UHGV virus genome: UHGV-0180039
DNA length: 37,605 nucleotides
Strand: one strand, 5' to 3'
DNA from: a virus
This document shows, piece by piece, positions 21,994-32,231 of the stretch. Position 1 is the stretch's first letter, and the number at the start of each line of letters is the position of its first letter. The notes under the pieces were generated by a model. It was not told the origin of the DNA. It worked only from the letters and a program-made list of their open reading frames with translations, and did no database searches. Position numbers and translations under genes: made by a program.

Positions 21994-22167
21994 CTATTTG
22001 AGTAATGCTTCGTCGCTGTCTCGCCACACGTCCTCCTTTTCCTGCGGTAGTGGCAAAACTCCTGTTGGTGTTCTTTCACACCGGAGACACCATCGATTCC
22101 AGTAAGGTTGCCCGGGTCGAAAGCGATCGCCTTCCTTTCGCTCTCCACATCGATAACAGTGCTTCAT
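21994..22167 (-). CDS. Small zinc-ribbon-like protein (two CxxC pairs)
   Basis: [11 protein letters not shown]...WCLRCERTP; its ATG overlaps the methylase stop (ATGA). The overlapping alternative frame (upstream part of 21684..22148) looks less protein-like. Confidence 0.35.
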
Positions 22168-22754
22168 GCGATCACCATTTTGCATGGTTTAATCGCCATG
22201 CCGGGAGCCAGTTCAAAATCGGAGTCGCACTGATTTCCCCACATATCCCACCCGGTCACTTTGTCGCGGCTAAATAACTCACAGCGCGGCACGTCGCCAA
22301 GCAACTTAGCTAACATGTCTCTTACGATCGGTGGTTTTGCACTGTGCTCCATTCTCGGTGCGGTAAAGTGCTGGCATATTGAAGCGTCCATTCTCTCAGG
22401 TAACCGCCCTCGAACGGCAAACAAGCAATCCTCGCTATTTGCCCGGGTCATATGCCCCATTCCGATCGCACTGTTGCCTTTGTGCTTATTGGTTTTGTGC
22501 CAAGTAAAGCCTTTCATAGTCATCAACCTGAATCCCCACGCCTCAATTACCTTTAGCGCTTCGGCTGGCTGTGTCGGCACCCACCACATCGCTAACAAGC
22601 AAGATTCTGGATCCGCTAAATCCCATACTGGCAGTCGGCAAATGTCCTGAACATTCATAACATCGTATTTATGTCCAGCACCGCGATTGCCATCGTTGGC
22701 TTTGTCGCGATATTGCCAAGGCGGATCTGCGTAAATAAGTTGGTATTTGTTCAT
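22164..22754 (-). CDS. DNA N6-adenine methyltransferase, MT-A70 family; no adjacent restriction enzyme
   Basis: 196 aa with the catalytic DPPW motif (YADPPWQY) near the N-terminus. Confidence 0.85.
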
Positions 22755-23807: not shown

Positions 23808-25688
23808 TTAATACTCCGTCACGTTTTCCTGTCGCCACGCCTCGTCATATTCCGATTTCGGCATATTGGCGATGTAGCTATATGGCGATCCTGATTCAAG
23901 TTGCAGGAACTGGTGCGATTGCTCGTCAAGGAACAACGGGACACCACCTTCCCAACCTTCGCCGTTACGTTGTTTTTCAAGCATCAAAACAGATGCCGGA
24001 GATGCAAGTAGCTGTTCGTCCTTCTCTGACATCTTTTCACCACTCTGAACTCTCTGTAACGCTCTCTCGCGAGCCTTGTTACGCCAGATGATGAAAAGGT
24101 TGTCTGTCAGGTCTGTTATCGCTCCAGAGCCTTTTACGTCCATTTTCCCGGTTGGTTTTTCTTCGCTGTCTCCTTTTCGCGAGTGAGTAACGAGAATGAC
24201 GTGGGAGTTTGTTTTGTTTTTGAAGTCGCAAATCGAGTCAACAAACGCCTTCTGCCCGTTATAGTCATCGTCGCCTATGCCACATTTCATCAGGCTGTCG
24301 ATGATGAATAACTGGATCCCGTATCGGCGGCGAGCGTAGTCGAATATTTCGATCAGCCTGTCGGCTTTCGCCGTTCCGGTCAGGCCAAACACCCAAAGTC
24401 TTTCGTCATAAAATTTAAATGCAGAGTCAATTTCCAGCACTGGCGGCATCTTGCAGCACGTCGCCTGACGGGTAAGGCGCTTAAGGAGAATACCAGGCTT
24501 CAGCTCAAGTGACGCGATGCACGTCTTCACCCCCTGACGCATTGCCTCAAGTGCCATATGCCCGACAACCTCCGTTTTTCCGTGACCGTTCACACCATTG
24601 ACCAGCGTCAACTCGGCCTCACGGAACTGGAATTTATCTGCCAGAGATTCCCACGGTGGATTAAACAGATACTGCTGCTTGCCGTAGAAAGCGTTGATAG
24701 TGTCCTGGTAAAACTCTCGCGCGCTGTAGAGTTCTTCAGGATCGAAGTAGGATGCCGTGCCGATGTACTGCCAGATTTCATCCTCGGTAACACCGTTCAT
24801 CAGGCATTCGTTGATGTCTTTGTACGGCAGAGTAACAAGACGGCAACGATGTTCACCGAGTCGGCTTGCGATTTCCCTTGCGGCTTCACGACCAACATCA
24901 TCAACGTCCATCGAGATGAATATTTCCTCAAACCTGTCGAGGTTGTGATACTCAAACTCAATCCACTGTTGCTTAGCGCCTTTCCCGCCACCAAACGGCA
25001 CGGATAACGCCGAGATGCCGTATTGCGCATAGCTAATACAATCAATTTCGCCTTCGCAAAGTACAACCGCCCTCACGCCAGCGTCCAGAGCCTGCCATCC
25101 GAACAGACAAGGTTCGCAATCACCTTCTGCCATAATGACTTTCTTCCCGTCCGGGCGCTCAGTGCTGATTCGCTTGACCTGCAACAACTCACCATCGCGT
25201 TTGTACGGAATCACCAGAGCATCCAGTTCTCGCTCTCCATTCCACACCTTGCCGCTGACAACCTCGTAGCGCTTTACGATTTCTGGAGATATGCCACGCG
25301 ATTGCAGGTACTCAAGATGGGATTCTGTTCTGGTAACGTAGCGGGCGATTTTCTTGCGGTCAGGTCTGGAGAATTTCTTCTCACGTCTGGCATCGAAATG
25401 GTGATCGTCATCCTTGATACCGAGAAATGCTTTCGCTTCCTGCATAGCCTGATGCAGGTTAATTCCACGACATGCCATCCATAAATCAAGCATGTCACCG
25501 CCGTCTCCCTCAGCGAAATCAGCCCATTTTTTCTTGCCGCTAAGGTTGACCTTAAGGCTGTTTCCCTTGTCGCCGTTGACGTTACCGGCAACCCACTCAT
25601 GCCCCTCTTTCTTGCCGTTTGGCAACAGGTGCGGAGCCACCCTGTCAACCTGCGCCCAAAGCAGGTCGCTGAGTTCACTTGGCGTCAT
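23808..25688 (-). CDS. Bifunctional primase-helicase (Toprim-type primase domain plus DnaB/RecA-like helicase domain)
   Basis: 626 aa; Toprim-like VVLCEGEIDCISYAQ...FISMDVDDVG in the N-terminal half; Walker A GVNGHGKT and Walker B LFIIDSL in the C-terminal half. Confidence 0.8.
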   Translation of the reverse strand: MTPSELSDLLWAQVDRVAPHLLPNGKKEGHEWVAGNVNGDKGNSLKVNLSGKKKWADFAEGDGGDMLDLWMACRGINLHQAMQEAKAFLGIKDDDHHFDARREKKFSRPDRKKIARYVTRTESHLEYLQSRGISPEIVKRYEVVSGKVWNGERELDALVIPYKRDGELLQVKRISTERPDGKKVIMAEGDCEPCLFGWQALDAGVRAVVLCEGEIDCISYAQYGISALSVPFGGGKGAKQQWIEFEYHNLDRFEEIFISMDVDDVGREAAREIASRLGEHRCRLVTLPYKDINECLMNGVTEDEIWQYIGTASYFDPEELYSAREFYQDTINAFYGKQQYLFNPPWESLADKFQFREAELTLVNGVNGHGKTEVVGHMALEAMRQGVKTCIASLELKPGILLKRLTRQATCCKMPPVLEIDSAFKFYDERLWVFGLTGTAKADRLIEIFDYARRRYGIQLFIIDSLMKCGIGDDDYNGQKAFVDSICDFKNKTNSHVILVTHSRKGDSEEKPTGKMDVKGSGAITDLTDNLFIIWRNKARERALQRVQSGEKMSEKDEQLLASPASVLMLEKQRNGEGWEGGVPLFLDEQSHQFLQLESGSPYSYIANMPKSEYDEAWRQENVTEY

Positions 25689-26827: not shown

Positions 26828-27121
26828 TCAGAACTCCATCTGGATTTGTTCAGAACGCTCGGTTGCCGCCGGGCGTTTTTTATTGGTGAGAATCGAAGCA
26901 ACTTGTCGTGCCAATCGAGCCATATCGTCGTCAACGACGCCCCATTCAAGAACAGCAAGCAGCATTGAGAACTTTGGAATCCAATCCCTCTTCCACCTGC
27001 TGATCTGCGACTTATCAACTCCCACAGCTTCCGCTGTCTTCTCAGTTCCAAGCATTGCGATTTTGTTAAGCAACGCACTCTCGATTCTTAGAGCCTCGTT
27101 GCGTTTGTTTGCACGAACCAT
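26828..27121 (-). CDS. cII: Transcriptional activator cII (lambda type)
   Basis: From the internal [100 protein letters not shown], near-identical to lambda cII. The 126-aa track ORF is an upstream extension across nutR. Confidence 0.9.
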
Positions 27122-27139
27122 ATGTAAGTATTTCCTTAA

Positions 27140-27173
27140 CAAATAAGAAGTTATGCGCATCAACTTATGCGCG
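27140..27173 (-). terminator. Possible tR1-like hairpin between nutR and cII
   Basis: Palindromic ATGCGCAT arms around a 6-nt loop, followed on the transcript by a U-rich stretch; weak. Confidence 0.3.
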
Positions 27174-27179
27174 TTGTAT

Positions 27180-27223
27180 TCCCGCATTTCTGCGGGAATG
27201 AGGACCATGACTGTTAAAGAGCA
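27180..27223 (-). promoter_or_regulatory. nutR: boxA (UGCUCUUUAACA) plus boxB hairpin (UCCCGCAGAAAUGCGGGA)
   Basis: boxA at 27223..27212 starts 6 nt after the cro stop; 14-nt spacer; 18-nt boxB at 27197..27180 with a 7-bp stem and GAAA loop. Confidence 0.6.
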
Positions 27224-27229
27224 ATTTGC

Positions 27230-27415
27230 TTATGCCGCTTTGCGGTAAGCGCTTTCTTGATACTTCAGGGCGCCAGCTGTAACGACTTCCAGTCGATAGG
27301 CGTCTTTCTCTGGGATGACTTCCTTCCACTGAGAGACTGCTGCGTCGCTAATGCCTAACGCTTTAGCTACAGCACGCTGGGTTCCGAAGTGGTCGATAAC
27401 ATCTTTCTTGTACAT
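27230..27415 (-). CDS. cro: Cro repressor (P22 type)
   Basis: 61 aa MYKKDVIDHFGTQRAVAKALGISDAAVSQWKEVIPEKDAYRLE.VTAGALKYQE.AYR.AA, near-identical to P22 Cro from memory. Confidence 0.95.
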   Translation of the reverse strand: MYKKDVIDHFGTQRAVAKALGISDAAVSQWKEVIPEKDAYRLEVVTAGALKYQESAYRKAA

Positions 27416-27429
27416 AGACTCGCTCCGAA

Positions 27430-27495
27430 ATTAAAGAACACTTAAATTACCCACTAAAGGAATCTTAAGTCAAGTTTATTTAAGATGTCTTAACT
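27430..27495. promoter_or_regulatory. OR1-OR2-OR3 operators (P22 c2/cro type), overlapping PR and PRM
   Basis: Three 18-bp dyad sites: ATTAAAGAACACTTAAAT (27430-27447), ACTAAAGGAATCTTAAGT (27453-27470), ATTTAAGATGTCTTAACT (27478-27495). Confidence 0.7.
27445..27473 (-). promoter_or_regulatory. PR promoter for cro
   Basis: Minus-strand TTGACT (27473..27468), 17-nt spacer, GTAATT (27450..27445). Confidence 0.55.
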
Positions 27496-28146
27496 ATGAA
27501 AACTCAATTGATGGGAGAGCGCATTCGCGCTCGGAGAAAAGAACTCAAGATCAGGCAGGCCGCACTTGGAAAGATGGTCGGCGTGTCTAATGTTGCCATA
27601 TCTCAGTGGGAACGCTCTGAGACAGAGCCAAATGGAGAGAATCTTCTCGCCCTGGCTAATGCGTTGAAGTGTTCCCCTGACTATCTGATGAAAGGAGAGG
27701 AAAGTCTTTCAAACATTGCCTATCACAGTAGGCATGATCCAAGAGGGTCATACCCTCTGATTAGCTGGGTGAGCGCAGGATGCTGGATGGAAGCTGTAGA
27801 ACCATATCATAAGCGTGCAATAGATAACTGGTACGATACAACCGTAGACTGTTCAGAAGATTCGTTTTGGTTGGACGTGAAGGGAGACTCAATGACGGCT
27901 CCGGCCGGTCTCAGTATCCCTGAAGGAATGATAATACTCGTCGATCCTGAAGTAGAGCCGCGTAACGGGAAACTGGTAGTTGCAAAGCTCGAAGGAGAAA
28001 ACGAGGCAACTTTCAAGAAGTTAGTTATTGATGCAGGCAGGAAGTTTCTAAAACCACTTAACCCACAATATCCGATGATCGAGATCAACGGAAACTGCAA
28101 AATCATCGGCGTAGTTGTCGATGCAAAACTAGCAAACCTTCCATAA
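27496..28146 (+). CDS. c2: Immunity repressor C2 (P22 type; LexA/S24-like C-terminal domain)
   Basis: 216 aa MKTQLMGERIRARRKELKIRQAALGKMVGVSNVAISQWERSETEPNGENLLAL..., near-identical to P22 c2 from memory; C-terminal Ser/Lys autocleavage-type domain (DVKGDSM ... VAKL). Confidence 0.95.
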   Translation: MKTQLMGERIRARRKELKIRQAALGKMVGVSNVAISQWERSETEPNGENLLALANALKCSPDYLMKGEESLSNIAYHSRHDPRGSYPLISWVSAGCWMEAVEPYHKRAIDNWYDTTVDCSEDSFWLDVKGDSMTAPAGLSIPEGMIILVDPEVEPRNGKLVVAKLEGENEATFKKLVIDAGRKFLKPLNPQYPMIEINGNCKIIGVVVDAKLANLP

Positions 28147-28170
28147 GGGGGCATTCGCCCCCTTTTTTTT
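28147..28170 (+). terminator. Intrinsic terminator directly after c2
   Basis: GGGGGC-ATTC-GCCCCC followed by eight T residues. Confidence 0.75.
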
Positions 28171-28194
28171 ATTTCCTTTAAAAATCAAAGCCAA

Positions 28195-28267
28195 ACTTAA
28201 GTTACGAAAGAAAATTTAAGTTTTCTTCAAAAATACTCTTGACCATTAATTAAAGAGATCTTAAATT
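28195..28267 (+). promoter_or_regulatory. OL operators and PL promoter
   Basis: Operator ATTAAAGAGATCTTAAAT (28249-28266) plus weaker upstream half-site matches (ATTTAAG); -35 TTGACC (28239-28244), 17-nt spacer, -10 TAAATT (28262-28267). Confidence 0.55.
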
Positions 28268-28312
28268 TAAGCCATCAGCAGGACGCTGGAAGCCAAACGG
28301 AACAGATTGGCA

Positions 28313-28354
28313 GGCTCTTTAACATTGATGGGATTGTCCCGCCGAAATGCGGGA
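28313..28354 (+). promoter_or_regulatory. nutL: boxA (GGCUCUUUAACA) plus boxB hairpin (UCCCGCCGAAAUGCGGGA)
   Basis: boxA 28313-28324, 12-nt spacer, boxB 28337-28354; boxB differs from the nutR boxB at one position. Confidence 0.6.
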
Positions 28355-28755
28355 ACCAAAGAGTAGTTGGCTTTGGGATTGGATGAATGAGCAGGCTGAT
28401 GCTCGACCAATGTATAAACAGCGCTCATGGCAAGCAGTAACCAATCTGCGCCTCAAGACAGCGTCACTGGTAGTGCGGGCGCTCTAACCAGTAAGCCGGA
28501 GTTCAGCACCGGCCATCCAATCGCCAAAGTCAATTCCATAGGCGTTATGCAGCCGCCACCATATTCAAGAAAGCTGCACAAGAGGTAGGAGGATTTATGT
28601 GAATACTTACATTCAATTGAGAGGTTAATTAAATAGAACTGATCGAGCAGAGTCCATAAAGGCTCATAAATGCTCTTCCATCCCCGTCTAATTGGCGGGG
28701 AAGGAAACCACTTTGTAATAAAAAAAATTCCAAAGTTGTTTCATCGGAGGTCAAC

Positions 28756-29055
28756 ATGACAGTAGTCATTACATATCTGGCTGACGATAACGCCAGAAAT
28801 CGCCGCAGAGCACGCAGACAGGCTCAACGTGAACAGGCAATGCAAGAGCAGCGACTGGCGCGAAAAATTGCGCTAAAGCTCTCTGGTTGCGTCAGAGCAG
28901 ATAAAGCAGCATCACTCGGAAGCCTTTGCTGCAAGAAGGCAGATGAAGTCGAGCGTAAACAGAACCGTATTTACTACCGCAAGCCACGCAGTGAAATGGG
29001 TGTGACTTGTGTTGGTCGCCAGAAAATGAAATTAGGCAGCAAACCACTTATTTGA
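28756..29055 (+). CDS. N: Antiterminator N (phage 21/lambda-like C-terminus, distinct arginine-rich N-terminus)
   Basis: 99 aa; arginine-rich motif DDNARNRRRARRQAQREQ at the N-terminus; C-terminal ...RKIALKLSGCVRADKAASLGSL.CKKADEVERKQNRIYY.KPRSEMGVTCVGRQKMKLGSKPLI resembles phage 21 N from memory; SD GGAGG upstream. Confidence 0.85.
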   Translation: MTVVITYLADDNARNRRRARRQAQREQAMQEQRLARKIALKLSGCVRADKAASLGSLCCKKADEVERKQNRIYYRKPRSEMGVTCVGRQKMKLGSKPLI

Positions 29056-29063
29056 GGTGAGAT

Positions 29064-29534
29064 ATGACAAAATCATGGAGCGTACCTTTTCCTGAATCAG
29101 AAACTGAACATGATGGAATGCCTGTTTTCTGGAGATTCCAAGCGACAGTTGAAGAAGATGGAATCAAAATATTCGCACTTCAATATATAGCTTTTCATCA
29201 GACAGAGCATTATGCATGGTTGGTTCCTGCGCATTGGATTGTTAATTTTAAACCAGCACCAAATCAGTGGTTACAGGAATGGAAACAAAGGAGAAATAGA
29301 TATGCAATTAAGAAAGTAGCAAAAAATGCAGAAAGATCTTTTGCATTCCCAACGAAGAAACTTGCCATTGAGAGTTTATTGCGCCGGAAGAAATACCATT
29401 TAATGAGAATCAAACAAGATTTGGCTGTTGTATCAACTCTTGTTGATGGGATGAAGAATATTGATACATCAACACCAGATATTGAATATAACTTTGGGCA
29501 CAACCAAGAAACAGAAAATTGGGTATTTTATTAG
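29064..29534 (+). CDS. Hypothetical 156-aa protein; first gene of an AT-rich moron downstream of N
   Basis: ATG with SD GAGGTGA; visibly AT-rich codon usage; no family recognised. Confidence 0.5.
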   Translation: MTKSWSVPFPESETEHDGMPVFWRFQATVEEDGIKIFALQYIAFHQTEHYAWLVPAHWIVNFKPAPNQWLQEWKQRRNRYAIKKVAKNAERSFAFPTKKLAIESLLRRKKYHLMRIKQDLAVVSTLVDGMKNIDTSTPDIEYNFGHNQETENWVFY

Positions 29535-29638
29535 TACGAGTAAGCACTGTGTATTCATTCCAACGAGTGAATACACGGAGCAATGTCGCTCGTAACTAAA
29601 CAGGAGCCGACTTGTTCTGATTATTGGAAATCTTCTTT

Positions 29639-29664
29639 GCCCTCCAGTGTGAGGGCGATTTTTT
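29639..29664 (+). terminator. Intrinsic terminator between the two moron genes
   Basis: GCCCTC-CAGTGT-GAGGGC followed by GATTTTTTAT. Confidence 0.65.
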
Positions 29665-29684
29665 ATCTATGAGGATATGAACAG

Positions 29685-30053
29685 ATGTCAAACATCAAAA
29701 AATATATCATTGATTACGACTGGAAAGCATCAATAGAAATTGAAATCGACCATGACGTAATGACAGAGGAAAAACTTCACCAGATTAATAATTTCTGGTC
29801 AGACTCTGAATGCCGACTCAATAAACACGGCTCTGTATTAAATGCTGTATTAATCATGCTGTCGCAACATGCTCTGCTTATAGCAATTTCAAAAGACCTA
29901 AATGCATATGGTGTTGTTTGTGAGTTCGACTGGAATGATGGAAATGGTCAGGAAGGATGGCCTCCAATGGATGGTAGCGAAGGAATAAGAATTACCGATA
30001 TCGATACATCAGGAATATTTGATCCAGATGATATGACTATCAAAGCCGCCTGA
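29685..30053 (+). CDS. Hypothetical acidic 122-aa protein; second moron gene
   Basis: ATG with SD GAGGA; Asp/Glu-rich; no family recognised. Confidence 0.5.
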   Translation: MSNIKKYIIDYDWKASIEIEIDHDVMTEEKLHQINNFWSDSECRLNKHGSVLNAVLIMLSQHALLIAISKDLNAYGVVCEFDWNDGNGQEGWPPMDGSEGIRITDIDTSGIFDPDDMTIKAA

Positions 30054-30146
30054 GCGCGGCTTTACCGCATACCAATAATGCTTCACGAGAGGTGTTTATT
30101 CATGAGCGTAAACGCTGATTAATGAACGCAGTTGATAGGATATAAA

Positions 30147-30659
30147 ATGGCATTTATAAAGATTCTTGAATTAATTTCCCTAAGTGAGATTAATAATGTT
30201 GTCAAATATAACCCTATTTCTGGTGAGTTCACATGGCTAAAATCTTATGGAGCAAGGAAGATAGGTGGAACTGCCGGAACAATAACAACAAGCGGCTACT
30301 TAAGGATTTTCATTAACGGAAGACACTATGCTGCACATAGACTTGCATGGATTATCACTTTCGGTGTTGAGCCTGAAGGTATTATCGACCATATAAATGG
30401 CATAAAGACAGATAACAGAATTTGCAATCTGAGGCTTGCAACTTACTCACAGAATTCAATGAATAGTAAAATAAACACCCTCAACAAATCAGGTTGCAAA
30501 GGAGTCACATGGAAGAAGGAAAGTAGAAAGTGGGCTGCCTATGGGAAATTAAACGGGAAGAAAAAACATCTAGGGTACTTTAATGAATTAGAAGATGCCA
30601 AAAAAGCTTACTGCGACTTTGCCAGAAAGCATCACGGCGAATTCTACAGGAGCAAATAA
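30147..30659 (+). CDS. HNH homing endonuclease (HNH_3-type motif plus AP2-like DNA-binding domain)
   Basis: Motifs HRLAWIITFG...IDHINGIKTDNRICNLRL and AP2-like GVTWKKESRKWAAYGKLNGKKKHLGYFNELEDAKKAY. Track start 30132 is TTG; ATG at 30147 with an AGGA SD is more likely. Confidence 0.8.
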   Translation: MAFIKILELISLSEINNVVKYNPISGEFTWLKSYGARKIGGTAGTITTSGYLRIFINGRHYAAHRLAWIITFGVEPEGIIDHINGIKTDNRICNLRLATYSQNSMNSKINTLNKSGCKGVTWKKESRKWAAYGKLNGKKKHLGYFNELEDAKKAYCDFARKHHGEFYRSK

Positions 30660-30793
30660 TGAATGAATATATTTTAGCTGGTAGCGGCGTCATGTCCGCT
30701 TTCTACCCGCACGAATCTGAATTATCACGCCGAGTTAAACAATTAATCAGAGCAGCAAAGAAACAACTGGAGGCGTTATGCGCAATGAAATAG
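30659..30793 (+). CDS. Possible 44-aa micro-protein
   Basis: ATG overlaps the HNH stop (TAATG); low confidence. Confidence 0.25.
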   Translation: MNEYILAGSGVMSAFYPHESELSRRVKQLIRAAKKQLEALCAMK

Positions 30794-30930
30794 CCATCAA
30801 TCACCAGATGCTTCGTGCGGCACAAAACAAAGCAGTAATAGCCAGATTTATTGGTGATTCCAAAATGTGGCTTGAAGCAAATAAAGCGATGAAATCAGCT
30901 ATCAACCTTCCGTGGTATCGCAGGAAATGA
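30778..30930 (+). CDS. Possible 50-aa micro-protein
   Basis: ATG preceded by GGAGG; MRNEIAINHQMLRAAQNKAVIARFIGDSKMWLEANKAMKSAINLPWYRRK. Confidence 0.3.
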   Translation: MRNEIAINHQMLRAAQNKAVIARFIGDSKMWLEANKAMKSAINLPWYRRK

Positions 30931-31011
30931 GTTTTACAGATAACTGGTCAGACGAAGAATTCATTCGTCAGATGAACAAAATGCTCAATCAGCACAAAGA
31001 ACAGGAGAAAG

Positions 31012-31323
31012 ATGATGATTCTGACTCTGAATGATAAGCGTGAAATATCGCAAATAATCGCAAGTTTTACCGATGATGATTACGAACGAATCAACAGTGA
31101 AGTTGATCGTCTCTGCAAACGTTGCGACCCAATAAGCGAAATGCTTCGCTCATATAAACCAGATGAACACACTAAGGACGCTATCGACTGGCTGGAAGAT
31201 GATGACTGTAACTATCAGGAAAAAGCCGCTGAATGGTTCTGGGATGCAATAACCGAAAGAGTTAAGGCTGAATATGCCTTCGCAATATTCAAACGCAGAC
31301 ACATTTATGGAGAAGCAGCATGA
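31012..31323 (+). CDS. Hypothetical 103-aa protein
   Basis: ATG with AGGAG SD; its stop overlaps the recT start. Confidence 0.45.
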   Translation: MMILTLNDKREISQIIASFTDDDYERINSEVDRLCKRCDPISEMLRSYKPDEHTKDAIDWLEDDDCNYQEKAAEWFWDAITERVKAEYAFAIFKRRHIYGEAA

Positions 31324-32231
31324 GCAATATCGTTGAATTCGTTAAACAGCAAGAGCAGTTATTCTGCGGAGCATTGACTGAACAGACGGTGACATGGGCT
31401 AAGGAAAGCCAGTTTGCAATTCAGTATTTCCAGAAAAACGATTACCTGGCTAAAACAGCACTGGCAAATCCAACCAGCGCACAGAACGCCATCATCAACG
31501 TTGCGGCGATCGGCATCACCTTAAACCCTGCAAGCAAACTGGCTTATCTAGTTCCGCGCGATGGCATGGTTTGCCTTGATATCAGCTATATGGGATTGCT
31601 TCATATTGCAATGGAGTCTGGTGTTATCTCATGGGGTCAGGCAAAACTTGTTCATGCTAACGATACCTATGAGTCAAACGGGCTTGATAAAGCACCAACC
31701 CATAAATACAACGCCTTCGGTGATCGTGGTGATATCGTTGGCGTTTACTGCACAGTTAAGACGCCGGCAGGTGATTATCTAACGGAAGAGATGAGTCTGG
31801 CTGAAATTGAGGCTGTAAGGAAAACAAGCAAGGCGGCATTCAGCGATAAAGGACCATGGGTAAATCACTGGAATGAGATGGCGCGAAAGACGGTCGTAAA
31901 GCGTGCAAGCAAGTATTGGCCTAAGGCATCACGTCTTGATAGTGCTATTCACGTACTAAACGAAGAAGAAGGTGTGTGGACTGAACCAGTTATGCCGCAC
32001 AAATCAGAGGAAGATATCCGCGAAGATGAACGGAAACGCCAGCAGGAAATAATGGATAAAGCACAACTTCTTTGCGATGAAATGGCTCAGGCAGAAAACA
32101 TGGACGATTTGAAGCGATATTTTGCAGAAGCATATCGCCTGACATCTGGAATGAAATTGCAGCAGAACGTACAAGCCATTTACGCAGAATGCAAAGCGAA
32201 ACTGGAGGTTGCCAGTGAGCAAACTATATGA
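31320..32231 (+). CDS. recT: RecT-family single-strand annealing recombinase
   Basis: 303 aa; conserved GPWVNHWNEMARKTVVKR block matches the RecT signature (GPWVTHWEEMAKKT in Rac RecT, recalled). Confidence 0.85.
   Translation: MSNIVEFVKQQEQLFCGALTEQTVTWAKESQFAIQYFQKNDYLAKTALANPTSAQNAIINVAAIGITLNPASKLAYLVPRDGMVCLDISYMGLLHIAMESGVISWGQAKLVHANDTYESNGLDKAPTHKYNAFGDRGDIVGVYCTVKTPAGDYLTEEMSLAEIEAVRKTSKAAFSDKGPWVNHWNEMARKTVVKRASKYWPKASRLDSAIHVLNEEEGVWTEPVMPHKSEEDIREDERKRQQEIMDKAQLLCDEMAQAENMDDLKRYFAEAYRLTSGMKLQQNVQAIYAECKAKLEVASEQTI

Follow-up and report, generated by a model that had tools for sequence, protein, structure and literature searches.

PreS, also known as LPR1, is an Hfq-dependent small RNA of bacteriophage lambda, which occurs in forms of ~88 and ~68 nt and whose 3' end is the terminator tL2a (Silverman et al., bioRxiv 10.1101/2024.10.31.621285). 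It is made in lytic growth, pairs with the dnaN mRNA of the host, raises the translation of this mRNA, and aids the replication of the phage DNA (bioRxiv 10.1101/2024.10.31.621285). Ea10 of lambda is an abundant early product (PMC3961180), and is non-essential (PMC10695390). A further gene of this group of phages has been named gp45 in HK97, L0079 in 933W and vb_24B_11c in phi24B; our searches of the literature on L0079/933W, HK97 gp45, vb_24B_11c and WP_000167595 nowhere found a function reported.

In this paper, we have analysed the interval 29064-30053 of a stretch of 37,605 nucleotides from a virus (UHGV virus genome UHGV-0180039), the whole of which is called the window below. The interval is probably part of the N-antiterminated early-left (pL) operon of a lambdoid prophage, in which three mosaic modules assort independently. 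Judged by sequence comparison, it is composed of three pieces that have all been sequenced before, i.e. the HK97 gp45/933W L0079 gene (ORF156 hereafter), the sRNA PreS with tL2a, and lambda ea10. The sequence is already known in the sense that the same genes are present in lambda, HK97, 933W and hundreds of Stx phages, and elements of the interval reach up to 41% of the complete E. coli genomes. The features of the interval and its surroundings are as follows.

27496-28146: cI
28239-28267: pL-like promoter
28756-29055, + strand: N-like antiterminator, 99 aa (phrog_271, E=5.4e-37; Pfam N_peptide, E=0.002)
29064-29534, + strand: ORF156, 156 aa, basic, pI 9.07; HK97 gp45/933W L0079/phi24B vb_24B_11c (phrog_1636)
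29549-29576, + strand: perfect 12-bp hairpin with a 4-nt loop (RNA fold; identical in the window, HK97 and lambda)
29577-29664, + strand: PreS (LPR1) sRNA, 88-nt form (identity to lambda; ends estimated from the T-run and the sizes in the literature)
~29597-29664, + strand: 68-nt processed form of PreS (estimated ends)
29637-29664, + strand: intrinsic terminator tL2a, stem 29637-29658, T6 29659-29664 (terminator scan; lambda identity)
29685-30053, + strand: ea10 (ORF122), orthologue of lambda Ea10, 122 aa, pI 4.36, DUF2528; in the lambda-homologous module 29544-30097
30098-30676, + strand: inserted HNH_3 + AP2 endonuclease cassette, CDS 30147-30659 (Pfam, 1.7e-15; PHROG; PADLOC, HEase)
30659-30793, + strand: cIII (PF08134, E=6.8e-26)
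30778-30930, + strand: kil (PF06301, E=1.7e-20)
31320-32231: RecT, in the recombination module downstream of ea10

The N-like antiterminator is the first gene of the pL operon and lies directly 5' of the block. Past the HNH gene the operon goes on in the same strand with cIII and kil.

The first-pass annotation had described the interval as two genes, for proteins of 156 aa and of 122 aa (the latter acidic), directly downstream of N, each with its own Shine-Dalgarno sequence, separated by a strong terminator, more AT-rich than their flanks and followed by an HNH endonuclease. All of these features have been confirmed in place, while the interpretation given to them, a two-gene moron with exclusion, defence or anti-defence functions, is partly supported. 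ORF156 starts 8 nt past the stop codon of the N-like antiterminator, and the Shine-Dalgarno sequences are GAGGTGA, 5 nt before the ATG of ORF156, and GAGGA, 9 nt before that of ea10. The GC content of 29064-30053 is 37.8% (36.1% for the ORF156 gene) versus 47.5% for the whole window, which places the interval in the lowest 0.3 percentile among all 990-nt windows. This composition had spoken for a single acquired unit; however, the low-GC stretch runs on to ~30660, through the HNH gene, which was inserted independently.

Comparison with related phages places the module boundaries as follows. Identity between the window and the near-isogenic prophage L012 of E. coli strain SJC33 ends at 29066 and is back at 29544, and the gap between these positions holds an annotated antirestriction Ral gene, the mosaic limits of the ORF156 cassette being 29067-29543. 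The match to lambda covers 29544-30097, with 97.1% nucleotide identity, and the HNH segment 30098-30676 is missing in the otherwise collinear prophages L011 and L012. The first module (29067-29543) is thus a replaceable accessory cassette, here holding the HK97 gp45/933W L0079 gene; in sister prophages its slot is empty or is taken by ral, by an Nmad5 gene or by another small gene. The second (29544-30097) is a lambda module, in which the Hfq-dependent sRNA PreS/LPR1 ends at tL2a and is followed by ea10, and the third (30098-30676) an insertion of a homing-type HNH endonuclease. The HNH cassette takes the place of ~50 nt of the ea10-cIII spacer together with the first 6 codons of cIII, and in one IMG/VR locus (L085) the same HNH gene directly follows PreS. 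It had been suggested that both genes of the interval sit in a ral/sieB-type accessory slot. This holds for ORF156, which swaps with ral in L012, but not for ORF122, which is the ea10 of lambda itself, at its usual position, and not foreign cargo.

PreS was identified from the literature and by direct alignment to lambda; a search of 27000-32000 against Rfam 15 at a permissive E-value found no sRNA family. The conserved module 29544-29669 is identical to the ral-ea10 spacer of lambda, is identical in HK97 too, and the lone mismatch of the shared spacer to lambda, at 29670, lies beyond the T-run. The fold of PreS has a z-score of -5.75, and the terminator hairpin is present in both the MFE and the centroid folds. 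The stem of tL2a consists of 8 bp with 5 GC pairs, and would also form the Hfq-type 3' end of PreS; it is the terminator that the first-pass annotation had noticed between the two genes, where its identity as tL2a and the 3' end of PreS went unrecognised. The 12-bp hairpin lies at the 5' border of this conserved stretch of non-coding sequence, and the estimated 5' end of the 88-nt form lies at the 3' base of this hairpin, which is possibly a processing site. Given the sequence identity and the same E. coli host, the PreS of the window would be expected to be expressed, to bind Hfq and to activate dnaN. PreS, the most conserved and most widespread element of the interval, is non-coding, and a protein-centred reading had missed it.

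ORF156 and ea10 are both real genes. ORF156 matches the PHROG 1636 profile over its full length (positions 1-156/156, E=2.7e-112), and its product has 99.4% identity to HK97 gp45 and 100% to 933W L0079, with an amino-acid identity of at least 99% (99.4-100%) in 74-79 of 83 phage records. The length of its homologues is kept, pN is 0.22-0.28 against a saturated pS of 0.70-0.91, and dN/dS is ~0.14 where calculable. ORF122 is identical to lambda Ea10 at 118 of 122 residues (97%), with four substitutions, and matches PF10800 (DUF2528) with 153.1 bits against a cut-off of 22 (E=3.9e-45, profile positions 1-104/104) as well as phrog_646 (E=4.5e-69). The earlier statement that neither protein could be assigned to a family has to be given up, as ORF156 belongs to PHROG 1636 and ORF122 is the DUF2528 protein Ea10. 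It remains correct that both are functionally uncharacterised, Ea10 being described only as DUF2528.

Searches for a function by similarity gave little for either protein. Neither ORF156 nor Ea10 has a Ral or SieB match in Pfam, NCBIfam or PHROG, or any match in NCBIfam, and sequence and profile searches of the PDB returned noise only for both. Among the defence models of PADLOC-DB v2, ORF156 hit only Cas1_II (E=0.018, 12 bits), which is noise, and Ea10 had no match. Profile-profile comparison found no distant homology between the two proteins. The search of 1.84 billion proteins with the ORF156 profile gave 87 representatives at E<=1e-3, and the only family columns conserved at >=90% are G33, T47, K87 and A101; tblastn with a distant family member found one cultured phage only. 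Using an alignment built from this profile search, AF2 produced a model of ORF156 with a pLDDT of 95.7 and a pTM of 0.82 (a shallow alignment of 20 sequences gave a pLDDT of 60), which shows a predicted architecture of a three-stranded beta-sheet and a 33-residue helix. ORF156 has no transmembrane segment (maximum Kyte-Doolittle 19-residue value 0.56) and is soluble. The structure search that had been proposed for ORF156 thus yielded a confident fold, but no analogue in the PDB. In BFVD there are 14 fold matches to the model at E<=1e-3, all uncharacterised, several of which come from phages that we take to be virulent, i.e. phiEa2809, phiAxp-3 and RG-2014. An AP2-like beta-sheet/helix DNA-binding domain, prompted by the motif RFAF-TK..A...L..RK, was rejected by hhalign.

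The two genes assort independently of each other. Among 5,426 complete E. coli genomes, PreS is present in 2,237, ea10 in 1,479 and ORF156 in 598. All three are contiguous in 282 genomes, so that fewer than half of the ORF156-bearing genomes (282/598) carry the whole block. Each gene also occurs without the other, gp45 in HK97 and ea10 in lambda. We have also sampled 120 PreS loci in IMG/VR, 107 of which were scorable on each side. Upstream of PreS, Ral was found in 24 of the 107 loci, ORF156, Nmad5 and a 99-aa protein in 14 each, and N directly in ~10; downstream, Ea10 was found in 37. Only 3 of the ORF156 loci in this sample that were scorable on both sides have Ea10 downstream. The co-occurrence of the pair in other prophages, which had been put forward as a check on a two-gene unit, was therefore tested and speaks against such a unit, even though the ORF156-ea10 pair is contiguous in most Stx phages.

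The genes of the interval are expected to be transcribed from pL. A simple consensus scan of the + strand between pL (28239-28267) and 30933 found no sigma-70-like promoter, although a weak or non-sigma-70 promoter could escape such a scan; in lambda, sieB of this region is transcribed from a promoter of its own. Expression is therefore expected to start at pL, with antitermination by N, and to fall early in the lytic cycle, and ORF156 and Ea10 would be made only after derepression of pL and the action of N, i.e. upon infection or induction and not in the lysogen. This timing favours host takeover or counter-defence over defence of the lysogen. Since no promoter of its own was found, the block does not qualify as a strict moron and is probably silent in a lysogen, and the suggestion of exclusion or defence cargo is weakened further by the failure of PADLOC to match either protein.

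What ORF156 does can be suggested from its position and timing. It may act in host takeover or counter-defence, a reading that we hold tentatively and at somewhat less than even chance; it is based on the alternation with Ral, the lack of conserved catalytic-type residues, and the relatives in virulent phages. ORF156 would then be a non-enzymatic binder of a host component. A wider claim, that the gp45/L0079 family is a structurally unprecedented class of counter-defence or host-takeover proteins interchangeable with Ral, and that the slot between N and PreS is a rich, so far unmined anti-defence hotspot, seems unlikely to us. The contents of this slot include Ral, Nmad5, proteins of 99, 149 and 107 aa, and others. 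The homologues of ORF156 in Pectobacterium and Brenneria adjoin xis-int and not N, so the argument from the Ral slot fails for the family as a whole. AntiDefenseFinder, which others have applied to ORF156-bearing phages, reported nothing there beyond a methyltransferase, Ral and Gam (PMC12502783).

Being basic and having a 33-residue helix, ORF156 fits a nucleic-acid-binding regulatory role equally well as far as the model is concerned. In this alternative it would be a small DNA- or RNA-binding regulator of the early development of the phage, acting through the three-stranded sheet and the long basic helix and not aimed at the host. Besides the predicted fold, the pI of 9.07 and the conserved basic stretch K-x4-K-x3-K-x4-RFAF-TK..A...L..RK are consistent with it, as is the setting of the homologues of TanjaMuster_Bas81 and Vibrio phage PvVp04, which come first or nearly first in an early operon that also has ParB-like, RusA, RecE and replication genes. 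We regard it as unlikely, and keep host takeover or counter-defence as the preferred reading for ORF156.

Ea10 appears to be an abundant, acidic and dispensable early protein that would act independently of ORF156. It contains 22 D+E versus 9 K+R residues. A transmembrane helix at about residues 51-69 (Kyte-Doolittle 1.92) was considered and rejected, because homologues have K, R or E in that stretch. By analogy, Ea10 might be an acidic decoy, possibly a DNA mimic, which inhibits a host nuclease or defence protein. Its small size, acidity, early abundance and dispensability, its place among the host-directed genes of pL (ral, cIII, kil and gam), and an invariant surface-type motif, EGWPPMDGSEGI, would agree with this; however, it is missing from the AntiDefenseFinder results for Stx phages, which are inferred to carry ea10 like related Stx phages, and searches by peptide, DUF2528 and ea10 gave no hit in the supplements of the 200-gene accessory-gene screen of Silas et al., so we consider a decoy role decidedly unlikely. 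Less probable still, and in our view quite improbable, is that Ea10 is a single-stranded DNA-binding protein, as its historic "ssb" label has it, which helps the recombination functions next to it. In the records of 933W and phi24B, similarity to lambda Ea10/Ssb has led to its annotation as a putative single-stranded DNA binding protein, and it lies upstream of the recombination module with RecT. However, no SSB or OB-fold match was found in Pfam (PF00436 gave none at E<=1) or in the PDB (no sequence or profile hit at E<0.6), the protein is strongly acidic, Pfam and NCBI now say only DUF2528, and its role is called "not fully understood" in recent lambda literature; moreover, it accompanies different recombinases, i.e. 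Red in lambda and 933W and RecT in the window, and is absent from HK97.

Finally, that ORF156 and ORF122 were acquired together by horizontal transfer as one two-gene moron, which provides the lysogen with exclusion or defence or works as an anti-defence pair, is extremely improbable: the lowest GC of the window, the location in the ral/sieB region, the uncharacterised products and the contiguous pair in 282 E. coli genomes and most Stx phages are in its favour, but it is largely refuted by the gene distribution, with mosaic junctions falling between the two genes, no profile-profile relationship between the two families, and neither an internal promoter nor a PADLOC match found.

The candidate two-gene system thus splits into independent modules and is not to be pursued as a pair. 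ORF156 by itself is a well-defined target of study, being compact and confidently modelled, with a fold for which no analogue has been solved; it is carried by the medically important Stx phages, in exactly the slot where ral is found elsewhere. If it were indeed a counter-defence factor, this would bear on the spread of Stx phages among E. coli strains.

Compared with the known systems, the interval resembles lambdoid morons, a concept that came from comparisons of HK97 and HK022, in its GC content, which is off from that of the flanks, in its variable presence between genes that are neighbours in relatives, and in the terminator 3' of ORF156. It differs from them in that no promoter of its own was detected for ORF156 and that ea10 is no insertion relative to lambda. 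Adjacent flanks in relatives together with atypical composition are found for ORF156, where N and PreS abut in the IMG/VR loci counted above, and not for ea10 in comparison with lambda. The terminator tL2a lies 3' of ORF156 but is part of the separately conserved PreS module, and is present whatever is upstream.

Like lambda Ral, ORF156 is a small, dispensable gene with predicted expression from pL, and in near-isogenic prophages the two occupy exactly the same slot between N and PreS; unlike Ral, which has 66 aa and is Cys-rich, ORF156 has 156 aa, is basic, has another predicted fold and shares no sequence similarity with it. The closest counterparts, HK97 gp45, 933W L0079 and phi24B vb_24B_11c, also have 156 aa and lie right after N and before the PreS/tL2a element, as in the window. 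The N allele upstream is another one in 933W and HK97, however, where similarity to the window does not begin until 29002, within the final 18 codons of N, and in HK97 gp45 is followed directly by cIII, without ea10. The ea10 gene has the same place as in lambda, after tL2a and before cIII, with the same Shine-Dalgarno sequence and spacer, whereas the window has the inserted HNH gene after it and lambda has cIII directly; the cIII of the window is of the PF08134 type and not of the lambda type. PreS, lastly, has the same sequence as in lambda across 29544-29669, including the terminator hairpin and the U-tract, and the same location upstream of ea10, while its 5' neighbour is ral in lambda and ORF156 in the window.

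The block lies in the immunity and early-left region of a lambdoid phage, read on the plus strand; a prophage adjoining ybhC in E. coli strain 22KM0354 matches this whole region at 99.8%. The features are as follows.

Features of the immunity and early-left region
27230-27415, minus strand, cro
27496-28146, cI
28145-28164, terminator after cI
28239-28267, pL-like promoter
28756-29055, plus strand, N-like antiterminator (99 aa)
29064-29534, plus strand, ORF156
150-nt spacer between ORF156 and ORF122
29685-30053, plus strand, ORF122
30147-30659, plus strand, HNH_3 + AP2 endonuclease coding sequence
30659-30793, plus strand, cIII
30778-30930, plus strand, kil
acidic 103-aa ORF between kil and RecT
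31320-32231, RecT recombinase

The N allele (28756-29055) scores weakly against Pfam N_peptide (19 bits, below threshold) and shares DNA similarity with the N genes of 933W and HK97 in its last ~18 codons alone, which places a mosaic junction at ~29002, within the 3' end of the gene. The kil-RecT interval (30912-31323) holds two acidic ORFs of 40 aa (pI 4.2) and 103 aa (pI 4.6); the latter, phrog_3486, is retained in collinear prophages and has no match in Pfam or NCBIfam. By correspondence with the annotation of locus L010, an MT-A70 family methyltransferase and a toprim-domain primase-type replication protein appear in the nin/replication region, at about 22164-22754 and 23808-25688 on the minus strand; so annotated, the methyltransferase is a likely anti-restriction factor encoded in another part of the prophage.

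The first-pass annotation described 29064-30053 as an AT-rich two-gene moron following N, with candidate exclusion, defence or anti-defence cargo; the observation stands, and the interpretation is partly right. The GC content of the block is 37.8% versus a window mean of 47.5% (the lowest 0.3 percentile among 990-nt windows), its genes encode a 156-aa protein (pI 9.07) and an acidic 122-aa protein (pI 4.36), each with its own Shine-Dalgarno site, and an HNH gene lies downstream of the pair. All the sequences of the block are already known and widespread. A simple consensus scan found no σ70-like promoter on the plus strand from pL to 30933, and both genes lie downstream of N, ORF122 additionally downstream of the terminator tL2a; thus, as in lambda, neither should be expressed without pL derepression and N antitermination. 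Such timing argues against an exclusion or defence role protecting the lysogen, which is therefore unlikely, and is in keeping with the neighbouring pL genes (ral, cIII, kil and gam), whose functions are host-directed.

ORF122, which had been left unassigned, is lambda's own ea10: its product is identical to lambda Ea10 at 118 of 122 residues and matches Pfam DUF2528 with 153 bits. This family has an invariant EGWPPMDGSEGI-type motif, and its members are found only in prophages, nearly all of Enterobacterales. Lambda produces Ea10 early and in abundance; the protein was formerly mistaken for Kil (PMC3961180) and is non-essential (PMC10695390). A historic 'ssb' label for Ea10 persists in the 933W and phi24B records; it was unsupported by sequence and profile comparison with SSB or any PDB chain, and also fits poorly with a pI of 4.36. 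A reasonable guess is that Ea10 may serve as an acidic decoy or inhibitor.

The spacer differs from the lambda ral-ea10 intergenic region by one mismatch, downstream of the T-run, and in lambda that region harbours tL2a and a recently described Hfq-dependent sRNA, LPR1, renamed PreS. The terminator described between the two genes is indeed present (stem 29637-29658 plus T6), but it is the 3' end of this already known sRNA. According to the PreS paper (bioRxiv 10.1101/2024.10.31.621285) and a review (PMC12197685), PreS has forms of ~88 nt and ~68 nt with tL2a as their 3' end, is produced during the lytic cycle of lambda, pairs with the host dnaN mRNA to increase its translation, represses alaS, and favours replication of the phage DNA. 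Rfam 15 does not contain the element, and the fold of its RNA segment is much more stable than those of shuffled controls (z = -5.75). Setting the published sizes against the T-run would place the 88-nt form at about 29577-29664. The conserved PreS module opens with a hairpin (29549-29576) whose 12-bp stem is perfectly paired and whose loop is 4 nt long; lambda, HK97 and the window share it without a difference. As its 3' base coincides with the estimated 5' end of the 88-nt form, it may be a candidate processing or stability determinant. We found no discussion of this hairpin in the available part of the PreS paper (bioRxiv 10.1101/2024.10.31.621285).

We sampled 120 PreS-bearing IMG/VR contigs, of which 107 were scorable per side. 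Upstream of PreS we found Ral (24/107), ORF156, an Nmad5-domain protein (PF18757) and a 99-aa protein (MNYTPGPWKWW...) (14/107 each), a 149-aa hydrophobic protein (5/107) and many singletons, while N lay directly upstream, leaving the slot empty, in ~10/107; a 107-aa acidic protein, DUF7446 and others also occur there. Downstream, Ea10 was found in 37/107, and the same HNH gene immediately after PreS in one contig. Thus, the non-coding PreS is the fixed landmark, with variable flanks on both sides, and the N-PreS slot (equivalent to 29067-29543), hypervariable across these loci (L013-L132), resembles a hotspot for accessory or counter-defence genes, with a conserved sRNA as its anchor. The accessory-slot argument holds for ORF156: the near-isogenic E. 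coli SJC33 prophage shares with the window both its N allele and its cIII-kil-ORF103-RecT genes, and the match between the two ends at 29066 and restarts at 29544, an annotated antirestriction Ral gene filling the gap. In the E. coli S87 prophage (L011, 721-984), an additional 87-aa hypothetical gene sits between N and the ORF156 homologue, so the slot can carry more than one cassette.

At the protein level ORF156 has 100% identity with 933W L0079 and with many proteins of Stx1/Stx2 phages, and 99.4% with HK97 gp45 and its H-19B counterpart; it defines PHROG 1636 and has no match in Pfam, NCBIfam or PADLOC. Close homologues, at 55-85% identity, are confined to prophages of Enterobacterales, always in early-left operons with no constant partner: they adjoin xis-int in Pectobacterium and Brenneria, head a RecT/YqaJ/SSB operon in Rosenbergiella, and precede ParB-like and RusA genes in coliphage TanjaMuster_Bas81. 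The gene is under purifying selection (pN 0.22-0.28 with synonymous sites saturated; dN/dS ~0.14 where calculable). When 1.84 billion representative proteins were searched with a profile, a wider family of 87 members of 125-165 aa emerged. An alignment of 73 members has only G33, T47, K87 and A101 conserved at ≥90%, a basic consensus (K..RFAF.TK..A...L..RK), and no catalytic-type signature. The AlphaFold2 model from the family alignment is a confident single domain (pLDDT 95.7, pTM 0.82) built from three long antiparallel strands (19-55), two short helices, one further short strand and a helix of 33 residues (98-130); no transmembrane segment was found. A suspected AP2-like relationship was rejected on comparison. 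Foldseek returned nothing from the PDB with E <0.5, and 14 matches at E≤1e-3 among the viral predicted structures of BFVD, all uncharacterised and several of them from virulent phages (Erwinia phiEa2809, Achromobacter phiAxp-3 and Delftia RG-2014).

We conclude that ORF156 is soluble and probably a non-enzymatic binder active during infection. We tentatively favour a putative role in host takeover or counter-defence, because Ral (and Nmad5) occupy the slot of this gene in other loci; the main rival, a putative nucleic-acid-binding regulator, seems rather improbable. No literature on its function was found, and AntiDefenseFinder has reported only a methyltransferase, Ral and Gam on phages carrying it (PMC12502783). 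With its orphan fold, Ral-equivalent slot and presence in Stx phages, ORF156 is a better experimental target than Ea10.

Pairwise BLAST of the window against comparator prophages and phages gave sharp junctions, which resolve the block into three modules, not the single unit first proposed. A count over 5,426 complete E. coli genomes puts the 124-nt PreS element in 2,237 (3,199 places), ea10 in 1,479, ORF156 in 598, their contiguous block in 282, and the full arrangement including this HNH gene in one, frequencies that agree with independent assortment. The HNH gene, a free-standing endonuclease between ea10 and cIII, is an insertion, since 30098-30676 is missing from the S87 and SJC33 prophages; it displaced ~50 nt of spacer along with cIII codons 1-6. 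Together with IMG/VR locus L085, where the same gene lies directly 3' of PreS without ea10, this pattern suggests a homing-type element targeting this region. Lambda matches the window at 97.1% over 29544-30097, that is, PreS and ea10, whereas the HK97 match covers 29002-29666 and resumes at cIII (30677), so that HK97 carries gp45 and PreS/tL2a without ea10.
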